NCBI GenBank assembly: GCA_000165345.1
Contig: CM000435.1
Coordinates: forward strand, 1,088,001 to 1,152,000
Length of the DNA stretch: 64,000 nt
Direction: 5' to 3'
How positions within the stretch are numbered: the stretch's first letter is position 1; every line of letters begins with the position of its first letter. The position numbers and the translations under genes are program-made. The notes below the pieces were generated by a model. The model ran no database searches. It was not told the DNA's origin and worked only from the letters and a program-made list of their open reading frames with translations. Positions 33,939 to 36,637 of the stretch are shown here, piece after piece.

Positions 33939-34478
33939 TGTATATATATTTTTATTGTTTATATATGTATTATATATATAAACAAAAATATAGTTGAATA
34001 TTTATTGATAAAAGTTGTGGCGGGAAATCCGAGCCATTTGTTTTAATAACCAAATTACGTAATTTGTGTAAAAAAAAAAGAAAAATAAGGAAAAAGCAAT
34101 TAAAAATTTGAAAATATTGGAATAAACAATTGAATATTATATGAAAATTTGACTTGAGCTGTATTTTCCTGTATTTATTTTTAAAATTTAAAATTTTCTT
34201 TCAAATGTTATTTAAAAATTTAGTATTTCTAATTAAATTTACTTACATGTAAATACTGAATTCTGGTATTAAATTATATAAATCTATTAATGTATTTTCC
34301 AGTTTATACAATAAATCCATTTAGTTTATACCTAATTAATAAAAACTATGTCATTAATGATATAGTTTGGAGAAACTAAATATTATTTTATTTATTTGTT
34401 TTTTTTTAATGTTAAATATAATTTTAATGAAAAAAAATTATAAAATAGATATGATAATGTAATTTGTAGTTACCATCA

Positions 34479-34598
34479 GCAATCGGCCATACTACATCGA
34501 ATATACCGGATCCCATCAGAACTCCGAAGTCAAGCGGTGTAAGGTTCGGTTAGTACTAGGGTGGGGGACCACCTGGGAAGACCAGAATGTCGATCGCC
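34479..34598 (+). rRNA. 5S: 5S ribosomal RNA, copy 1 of 3
   Basis: GCAATCGGCCATACTACATCGAATATACCGGATCCCATCAGAACTCCGAAGTCAAGCGGTGTAAGGTTCGGTTAGTACTAGGGTGGGGGACCACCTGGGAAGACCAGAATGTCGATCGCC is a canonical eukaryotic 5S (GGCCAUAC...GUUAGUACU...CCUGGGAA). Helix I is 5' GCAAUCGGC with 3' GUCGAUCGC. A T5 Pol III terminator follows immediately. Ends are approximate to within a few nt. Confidence 0.9.
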
Positions 34599-35149
34599 TC
34601 CTTTTTAAAATTTTGTTAATAACTAATATTTAATCTTAATTAAAAGAACTTATTGTTTGATTGGCAAAATGAATTATTTCAATAAGTTATATTTACAATT
34701 TCATCGTTTTATTTTTGTTTAGTTTTTTAGATTAAATTCCATTTTAAATATATAAAGTGGCGGGCTAAATAAAACCGTTATCCATTTTTATTTACAATTG
34801 ATTCATGAAAAAAATATTTTAATAATTTTAAAAAGGCGGGAAGTTTGCATTGGGAGTATTTTAAACTAGAAACCAATTTTACATGTAAGAATATTTATAT
34901 ATAAGGAAAAAGCGTACTAAAAGCAACTTTTACTTTTAAATAAATAGTAGGCTTAAATAATTGAAAATAACAGCAAATTGATTTAAAAGTTATTTAAACA
35001 TACTTCAATCATTCTCTACTCTTTAGTTTTTTTTTTTAACAACCAATATTAAGTATCTAGGATCCCTAATATTAATATTTTTGATATATTTAATTAATAA
35101 AAAAAAAATGAAAAAATTAATATAGTAATGCAATTTGTAGTTACCACCA

Positions 35150-35269
35150 GCAATCGGCCATACTACATCGAATATACCGGATCCCATCAGAACTCCGAAG
35201 TCAAGCGGTGTAAGGTTCGGTTAGTACTAGGGTGGGGGACCACCTGGGAAGACCAGAATGTCGATCGCC
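35150..35269 (+). rRNA. 5S: 5S ribosomal RNA, copy 2 of 3
   Basis: 120 nt identical to copy 1. Followed by CCTCCTTTTTAAAATTTTTTTT. Confidence 0.9.
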
Positions 35270-36060
35270 TCCTTTTTAAAATTTTTTTTCTTTTGAATAA
35301 CAATTCTTTTTATTTAACAAAGATGAGATACAATTCTTAATTGATAATAGTAATTTTTATTTAGTAATGATGAATACTTTTTAAATAATTATCTTTTAAT
35401 AAATTAGTTGGCGGGGAAATCCTTCAATTTCTTCTAATTATACAATAATAATATTTTCCCAAATATAAGAAGGAAAGGGAGGGGGTTGAAAGAAATTTGA
35501 ATTTTAGCAATATTTAAAATTTGCATGCACGTATATTTGCGAGTTATATTTATTATCAAAAAAATATTTTTTTTTTTCGTTATGGAAAGTGCTACCAGAT
35601 TGGTCTTACTCCATGAAACTCTAAAGTAATATAATTTGTTTGTAAGTTTCTCAATTTACAAAACAAAAATATCTATATTTAAAAAAAAGTTATTATTTTT
35701 AACCTAATCATTTTTTTTTAAAACTCGTACTAATCTATATTTTAATTCAAATGTATTACAAAAAGTCAAATGCGCGCCATTTGTGTGCATTAAATATTTA
35801 TTTATTAAAATAAAAGTGATCAAATAACATAATTGTCTGTAAATAGTAAAATTGTTAGTAGATACACAATACAAGCTTAAAATTTTTAATTATTTTAATA
35901 CTATTTTTATCTTTTAATTATTATTTTTATATAGTATTACGTTATTACTAATAGTTACCAATAAATAGTTTGTTTATACAATAGTCAACTGCTTATTTCA
36001 ACAATATAATACAAAAGAATAAAAACATTGATATGATAATGTAATTTGTAGTTGCCATCA

Positions 36061-36180
36061 GCAATCGGCCATACTACATCGAATATACCGGATCCCATCA
36101 GAACTCCGAAGTCAAGCGGTGTAAGGTTCGGTTAGTACTAGGGTGGGGGACCACCTGGGAAGACCAGAATGTCGATCGCC
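36061..36180 (+). rRNA. 5S: 5S ribosomal RNA, copy 3 of 3
   Basis: 120 nt identical to copies 1 and 2. Followed by TCCCTTTTTAATTTC. Confidence 0.9.
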
Positions 36181-36637
36181 TCCCTTTTTAATTTCTTATT
36201 TTTTGATACATTAATTTATTCTGGATGATAAAAACCCTCAAATACAATCTTTATTTTTTCTAGAAAGCTTGGAAAGACAAATGTTGGCAAATACCTAACC
36301 TTGTAGATATACTGAATGTTATTCTTATTACTATTTTTTCTATATATTTATCTATTTATTTGATTTCTTTCCCCCACCCCCCTTTCATCCATCTAATTTC
36401 CATTTTTCTATATATTTCTATTCCTAATTTTATTTTTAACCTACTTGTTCATTTCCAACTTTCCTAATTTCTTTTACAAATAAAATAATTATATGTATAA
36501 AATGATAAAACAACAAAATTGTTCTTGTAAAATTTCTTAAAATTAGTCATTTTTTACCCCTCAAAAAAAAAAATACTTTAATGTTTTATTATATTCTGAT
36601 TTAGTAAAATTAAACCATAATTTACATGTGGGGTGCA

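Follow-up and report, generated by a model that had tools for sequence, protein, structure and literature searches.

The stretch of DNA analysed here (hereafter the window) comprises 64,000 nt, positions 1,088,001 to 1,152,000 of the forward strand of contig CM000435.1 (assembly GCA_000165345.1), and contains the cluster of three 5S ribosomal RNA (rRNA) genes on chromosome 7 of Cryptosporidium parvum. Each gene is preceded by a box of approximately 30 nt which is shared by the three copies. Comparison with other Cryptosporidium species indicates that this box is probably a composite of two parts with different histories. Its distal third, a TATA-like element, appears to be under selection across the genus, and its proximal part appears to have been homogenised within the genome by short-tract gene conversion. 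Positions given below are those of the window, or are counted from the first nucleotide of the gene (+1).

The identity of the genes is not in doubt. A covariance-model scan (cmscan) with the Rfam 5S_rRNA model RF00001 returned three full-length matches on the + strand, at 34479-34598 (copy 1), 35150-35269 (copy 2) and 36061-36180 (copy 3). Each is 120 nt long, spans model positions 1-120 and, at 102.5 bits, clears the gathering score of 38, so that all three copies belong to the family on the full-model score and their ends are fixed by the alignment, as an earlier prediction made from the letters of the window (hereafter the original prediction) had suggested they should be. The same prediction was right that the three gene sequences are 100% identical and that they are separated by spacers of 551 and 791 bp. 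It had also supposed that the array itself was not new, and this is the case: three tandemly repeated 5S rRNA genes were published from C. parvum in 1994 (Taghi-Kilani, Remacha-Moreno and Wenman, Gene 142:253-258, cited in PMC7708651). Judging by its title, that paper concerns the same organism and the same object as the present array. The dissection across species given here is not part of the 1994 work because no other Cryptosporidium sequences existed then.

The shared box lies immediately upstream of each gene, at 34449-34478, 35120-35149 and 36031-36060 on the + strand. A 24-mer from it, TAATGYAATTTGTAGTTRCCAYCA, occurs three times in the window, in every case at a 5S gene, whereas shuffled sequences are expected to contain none. 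The claim of a shared box of this length was thus sound, but the original prediction had put the divergence at one or two substitutions per copy, and relative to its 30-mer the copies actually carry 0, 4 and 1. The restriction of the 24-mer to the 5S genes speaks for reading the whole box as a single sequence-specific extragenic promoter element for RNA polymerase III (Pol III), recognised by a dedicated factor and selected over its full sequence. Comparison with related species makes that reading quite unlikely, for the reasons set out below.

To extend the comparison beyond C. parvum, in which the array lies between a gene for a PP2A B''-type EF-hand protein and a gene of 2151 aa, the syntenic interval was collected from other species by means of two flanking proteins and then scanned with Rfam for 5S genes. 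This yielded 17 copies from eight species (C. parvum and seven others), and the comparisons across species that follow refer to this set unless stated. Within the same gene interval, three copies were found in C. meleagridis (spacers of 539 and 777 bp) and in C. canis (752 and 640 bp), two in chipmunk genotype I (741 bp) and in C. felis (490 bp), and a single copy, hence no spacer, in each of C. bovis and C. ryanae. The two copies of C. muris (spacer of 549 bp) adjoin the orthologue of the 2151-aa gene. Copy number in the assemblies examined therefore ranges from 1 to 3. The EF-hand gene of C. andersoni has no 5S gene beside it, since synteny breaks at that point; the gastric clade is covered via C. 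muris. Contigs of C. ubiquitum, and short-read contigs from Logan, stop short of any 5S gene on both sides and contributed no copies. Because short-read and unitig contigs of this locus end before any 5S gene, the counts of one or two in some draft genomes may be underestimates. Metagenome contigs were also scanned for the 5S core GGATCCCATCMGAACTCCGAAGTCAAGCGGT with no match; a looser pattern would admit plant and algal 5S genes.

The history of the array can be read most directly from the closest of these comparisons. The C. parvum intergenic region that holds the array (33133-36879) aligns from end to end with its C. meleagridis counterpart at 77% identity, and the spacer lengths correspond. 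The three-copy array is therefore older than the split between C. parvum and C. meleagridis, and each copy has its orthologue in the other array.

Concerted evolution of tandem 5S genes, by gene conversion or unequal exchange, leaves paralogues within a genome more alike than orthologues between genomes. In an array whose copies are orthologous one by one, the upstream flanks can be inspected for this pattern segment by segment. Far from the gene (-100 to -41), the copies group by position, as expected without homogenisation: orthologues share an identity of 0.70, compared with 0.59 among the C. parvum paralogues, 0.56 among those of C. meleagridis and 0.58 for non-orthologous pairs between the two species. 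Next to the gene (-18 to -1), they group by species, with identities of 0.93 and 0.81 among the paralogues of C. parvum and C. meleagridis respectively, and only 0.63 for orthologues and 0.64 for non-orthologous pairs. The segment between them that holds the TATA-like element (-30 to -19) is similar in every comparison (0.83 and 0.94 for the two sets of paralogues, 0.86 for orthologues and 0.86 for non-orthologous pairs). The switch from species-wise to position-wise grouping takes place beyond about -31 to -40. At single-base level, all three C. parvum copies differ from all three C. meleagridis copies at -14 and -4, and the differences at -13, -8, -7 and -5 are nearly fixed.

Paralogues are thus more alike than orthologues outside the selected gene itself, within an orthologous array. 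This species-wise grouping is the signature of short-tract gene conversion, because the pattern would otherwise require repeated identical parallel substitutions. The conversion tract is approximately 165 bp long, extending overall from roughly -30/-40 to +130/+136. It runs from about -30/-33 to +130/+136 in C. parvum and reaches about -42 in C. meleagridis, and the extent of paralogue identity defines a homogenised unit on the + strand at 34449-34614 for copy 1, with equivalents at 35120-35285 and approximately 36031-36192. Beyond it the spacers evolve independently. The proposal, originally drawn from the three copies in the window, that homogenisation is confined to the gene and the flanks close to it is thereby borne out by the second species.

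The proximal box (-18 to -3; 34461-34476 in copy 1, with equivalents at 35132-35147 and 36043-36058, + strand) lies inside this tract. It is homogenised within species and is not conserved between them: identity between C. parvum and C. meleagridis is 63%, which is not above that of the neutral spacers (approximately 76%), and column identity across the eight species lies at the null level described below. As judged from these comparisons the proximal box bears no sign of sequence-specific constraint, and its identity within the genome is therefore better attributed to gene conversion than to a 30-nt recognition element. The same figures count against selection over the full box by a dedicated factor, as do the third C. 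canis copy and the two C. muris copies, where the 5S gene is complete although the sequence just upstream of it is unrelated. Species-wise grouping in an orthologous array, moreover, signals conversion and not conserved function. When -18 to -3 was inspected for an element of the proximal sequence element (PSE) type, as in external Pol III promoters of the type 3-like class, with more than 15 nt of specific upstream sequence conserved among relatives, none was found across the eight species.

The distal part of the box behaves differently. The 17 copies were anchored at +1, with each species weighted equally, and between-species identity was calculated for each column; random intergenic anchors from the same loci provided a null of 3000 columns (mean 0.31, 99th percentile 0.51, maximum 0.69). 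Conservation stands out in three places. The first is the TATA-like element itself, where T-29, A-28 and T-27 reach 0.54, 0.66 and 0.80, and T-24 reaches 0.74. The second is an A-rich tract from -48 to -33, in which A-36 stands at 0.88 and A-45 at 0.76. The third is the dinucleotide directly before the gene (C-2 = 0.57, A-1 = 0.54). In C. parvum the element occupies -29 to -21 of each copy on the + strand, as TATGATAAT at 34450-34458 and 36032-36040 and as TATAGTAAT at 35121-35129. The parvum group and C. canis carry TATGATAAT, TATAATAAT or TATGATAGC in the identical register, and the equivalent in C. felis is TATGATCATAAT. The third C. canis copy and the two copies of C. muris are preceded by sequence that is otherwise unrelated, yet each has TATAATAAG, TATATTAAC or TATAATATAAC at about -34 to -24. 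By sequence comparison, then, the element lies where it does in TATA-assisted 5S promoters, some 25-30 bp upstream, and its position is conserved.

These results divide the original proposal that the box is a candidate extragenic promoter element. The proposal survives for -29 to -21 and for the CA at -2/-1, which are conserved over the eight species, and fails for -18 to -3, which is specific to each species.

It could be argued that the box has no part in promotion at all. It would then be flanking sequence that gene conversion or the original duplication had brought with it, its resemblance to a TATA sequence would follow from A+T richness, and the internal control region would suffice for transcription. 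There is something to be said for this. The conversion tract does reach into both flanks of the gene, and classical type 1 promoters, such as those of Xenopus, run from the internal control region (PMC7279448). We nevertheless hold it to be unlikely. Columns -29 to -27 and -24 exceed the 99th percentile of the null or all 3000 null columns; a TATA-like string recurs at the same distance in copies whose upstream sequence is otherwise unrelated; and in C. parvum the 5′ limit of homogenisation all but coincides with that of the element. A similar element is also conserved at another Pol III gene of the window, the tRNA-Met gene at 27821-27894 (- strand), where an A/T element of the TTTAAATAA type is found at about -38 to -28 in nine Cryptosporidium species (window 27895-27935).

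Several observations weigh against the composite interpretation, and some of them favour one or other of the alternatives. In C. bovis and C. ryanae the element is degenerate (AATAGTAGT and ATATTATTA). The intergenic DNA is approximately 76% A+T, so that TATA-like strings are frequent in it, and the element departs from the canonical TATAAA. Nor do the eight species count as independent samples, and a null drawn from non-orthologous positions understates identity by descent among the three closest. As the only other Pol III gene compared, tRNA-Met does not establish general use of a TATA element by Pol III in the genus. Promoter function for the element is, furthermore, deduced from comparison. 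Lastly, the stretch from -14 to -5 is enriched first in G and then in C across the species compared, with G favoured at -14 to -10 (TGGWG-like) and C at -8 to -5 in most of them, against an A+T-rich background. Arabidopsis 5S genes possess a GC element near -12. The enrichment could mark a degenerate proximal element, which would lend something to the reading of the whole box as a promoter, and it may be a weak compositional signal that an explanation by conversion alone ignores.

Boxes A and C of the internal promoter and the terminator conform to expectation. Using consensus patterns taken from PMC3369914 and canonical positions taken from PMC7279448, box A was matched at +50-64 (AGTCAAGCGGTGTAA) and box C at +80-97 (AGGGTGGGGGACCACCTG), both where they should be. 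The consensus for the intermediate element, expected at about +67-72, is highly degenerate and gave many matches, none of them at exactly 67-72. Downstream of the gene, the terminator had been predicted as a T-run in the first 10 nt or so, and all three copies have one: TCC or TCCC followed by T5, at 34599-34606, 35270-35277 and 36181-36189 (+ strand), the T5 runs themselves occupying 34602-34606, 35273-35277 and 36185-36189 and beginning 4-5 nt past the gene. A run of at least four T begins within 6 nt of the gene in 16 of the 17 copies. In C. muris copy 1 the first T-run lies about 19 nt past the gene.

Each 5S copy would most probably be an independent Pol III unit. Its type 1 internal promoter would consist of box A and box C at the positions given, and the upstream TATA-like element, with the A-rich tract before it, would seat TBP/TFIIIB about 25-30 bp before the start. 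That placement would fix initiation either at the G which follows CA or at the A of this CA. The transcript would end in the T5 run, 3-4 nt beyond the mature 3′ end, and would then be trimmed by a few nucleotides. Here TBP binding, promoter function and the exact start of transcription are what we infer from the sequence. The start is uncertain by one base, between G(+1) and A(-1). CA precedes G(+1) in most species; in C. bovis and C. ryanae the base next to the G is C or T. A pyrimidine followed by a purine is the usual context of a transcription start, and a start at A(-1) would fit it.

That one-nucleotide uncertainty is also as near as the data come to favouring a further explanation, for which nothing speaks directly: that the box is itself transcribed, either as a 5′ leader of a 5S precursor or because the true 5′ end of the RNA lies within it. 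This we regard as very improbable. Alignment to the covariance model is complete from 1 to 120, with helix I closing the molecule at G1/C119; conservation between species falls sharply at -1/-3; and folding the box together with the gene adds no significant structure (z = -0.13). Eukaryotic 5S rRNA, in addition, retains its primary 5′ end.

Separately, an imperfect local hairpin in the box (GTAATTTGTAGTTAC) was considered and rejected: it is not kept in C. meleagridis, and the joint fold of box and gene, as given above, is no better than that of shuffles.

The 5S molecules themselves vary in ways that touch their helices. Compensatory changes among species at positions 16/62 and 17/61 support helix II. 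In helix I, an A3·C117 mismatch (34481/34595 in the window, and equivalents) is present in all copies of C. parvum, C. meleagridis and the chipmunk genotype. Position 117 is U, which gives an A-U pair, in C. felis, C. bovis, C. ryanae, C. muris copy 2 and C. canis copy 1, and C. canis is polymorphic at this position among its own copies. Between the two C. muris genes (8278-8397 and 8947-9066 of its sequence) helix I shows compensatory changes, GCAGTTGGC/GCTAACTGC versus GCAATCGGC/GCCGATTGC, so that C. muris possesses two different variants of 5S and is less homogenised.

Upstream elements of this type have precedents. A TATA-like motif at -28 is reported to be required for 5S transcription in Arabidopsis (PMC5887818), plant and S. 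pombe tRNA genes have a TATA at -30/-24 (PMC7279448), and an upstream TATA-like element has been reported for the 5S genes of Trichomonas vaginalis and Naegleria gruberi (PMC3369914). The original prediction had suggested that its promoter box might be new, but a TATA-like element ahead of 5S genes does not amount to a novel type of promoter. Like other TATA-assisted Pol III promoters, the Cryptosporidium unit combines an internal control region, a TATA-like element about 25-30 bp upstream and a T-run terminator. Unlike that of Arabidopsis, its element (TATGATAAT, TATAATAAT) is non-canonical and is known here from comparison of sequences. By analogy with these systems, the TATA-like element of the 5S genes would belong to a well-known kind of Pol III promoter and would be an ordinary case of it. 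A literature search for Pol III promoters in Cryptosporidium returned no published description.

The layout of the array also has a counterpart among the Apicomplexa. In Plasmodium, three head-to-tail 5S genes occupy a single locus on chromosome 14 of P. falciparum and on chromosome 10 of P. berghei (Shippen-Lentz and Vezza 1988, per PMC12235521). The two genera are alike in having one three-gene, head-to-tail 5S locus which is unlinked to the large rRNA genes, and a copy number that is very low for a eukaryote. They differ in their surroundings, as the Plasmodium locus is flanked by the Pol III genes for tRNA-Pro and 7SL RNA whilst the Cryptosporidium array is flanked by protein-coding genes. 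Typical 5S arrays contain hundreds of copies, and in these the whole repeat is homogenised, spacer included. In contrast, Cryptosporidium homogenises approximately 165 bp per unit and its spacers keep their copy-by-copy orthology, which leaves the ends of the tract readable.

The spacers had been described as unalignable beyond the near flanks, and in terms of alignment this holds. Smith-Waterman scores between them (34) are no different from what dinucleotide shuffling gives (mean 33.1, standard deviation 3.7), and hidden homology between the spacers was rejected for this reason. A permissive Rfam scan of 33133-36879 found the three 5S genes and a single chance-level match to a miRNA family (19.8 bits against a gathering score of 80). 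No open reading frame (ORF) in the spacers exceeds 56 aa, except those overlapping the 5S genes. Yet each spacer shares an E2F-like GGCGGG motif. Spacer 1 contains GGCGGGAA at 34835-34842 (+ strand) and a second site, GGCGGGC, at 34759-34765; spacer 2 contains GGCGGGGA at 35410-35417 (+ strand) and a GCGCGCC site at 35772-35778; and further sites flank the array at 34019-34026 and 36639-36646. In the window as a whole GGCGGGR occurs 11 times, against an expectation of 0.5.

The position of these sites recurs between species. They lie 140-250 nt after each internal 5S gene, not only in C. parvum but also in C. meleagridis, chipmunk genotype I, C. canis and C. felis, and in the A+T-rich species at least one site is found in only about 1-3% of shuffles per spacer. 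The motifs are absent from the single-copy 5S loci of C. bovis and C. ryanae. GGCGGG and TTTGGCGGGAAV represent a family of E2F-like motifs. Upstream of C. parvum genes, those for ribosomal proteins among them, this family is over-represented (PMC3734150), and it dominates open chromatin in sporozoites (bioRxiv 10.1101/2025.01.17.633476). Neither an ORF nor a known RNA family from the scans of the spacers explains the sites. It is conceivable, if unlikely, that these sites, present in every internal spacer of five intestinal species, are more than stray remnants of RNA polymerase II (Pol II) promoters and tie the Pol III-transcribed 5S genes to the E2F-driven ribosomal-protein regulon, for example by keeping chromatin open over the array, or that they drive unannotated Pol II transcripts between the 5S genes. 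As a separate observation, an E2F-like CCCGCC is found further upstream of the tRNA-Met gene in most intestinal species.

Other features of the interval concern the neighbouring genes and the spacers. The EF-hand gene, for a PP2A B''-type regulatory subunit, occupies 31729-33132 on the + strand, and its protein is 100% identical to C. parvum EAK90460/XP_628641. The 2151-aa gene downstream of the array begins with an ATG at 36880. Upstream of the latter, a segment of about 70 nt (36604-36680) hardly differs between C. parvum, C. meleagridis, the chipmunk genotype and C. canis. Stacked within it are a G-box (TGTGGGG), an AP2-type TGCATG, the E2F-type GGCGGGAAA and GTATAATTATATAG, and it is probably a composite Pol II promoter. 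Between the EF-hand gene and the first 5S gene lies an ORF of 70 aa with two hydrophobic stretches (33478-33690, - strand), which falls within a region (33473-33672) where the DNA is 96% identical to that of C. meleagridis. Gene calls on Logan contigs include this ORF, and those for C. felis place a gene of 71 aa at the corresponding position. No Pfam match was found for it, and it is likely to encode a small conserved membrane protein. Finally, a 36-nt inverted repeat with 75% complementarity links a G-rich arm in spacer 2 (GGAAAGGGAGGGGGTTGAAAG, 35461-35496) to its C-rich inverse after copy 3 (36363-36398); it is probably not conserved, because alignment with C. meleagridis places the second arm in an indel.

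The practical value of these findings is small. The unit of approximately 165 bp, in which a TATA-like element is combined with a start that follows CA and with a terminator of T5, is a candidate Pol III expression unit, and could aid the design of small-RNA or guide-RNA cassettes beside the U6 promoter now used in Cryptosporidium. The array also offers a clean natural case of gene conversion, in which tract ends can be read to within a few bases because it is orthologous copy by copy. It carries a caution as well, namely that sequence shared by paralogues says nothing of function until relatives have been compared as well. For the biology of the parasite, the E2F-like sites in the spacers are the sole lead that might add to what is known of its gene regulation.

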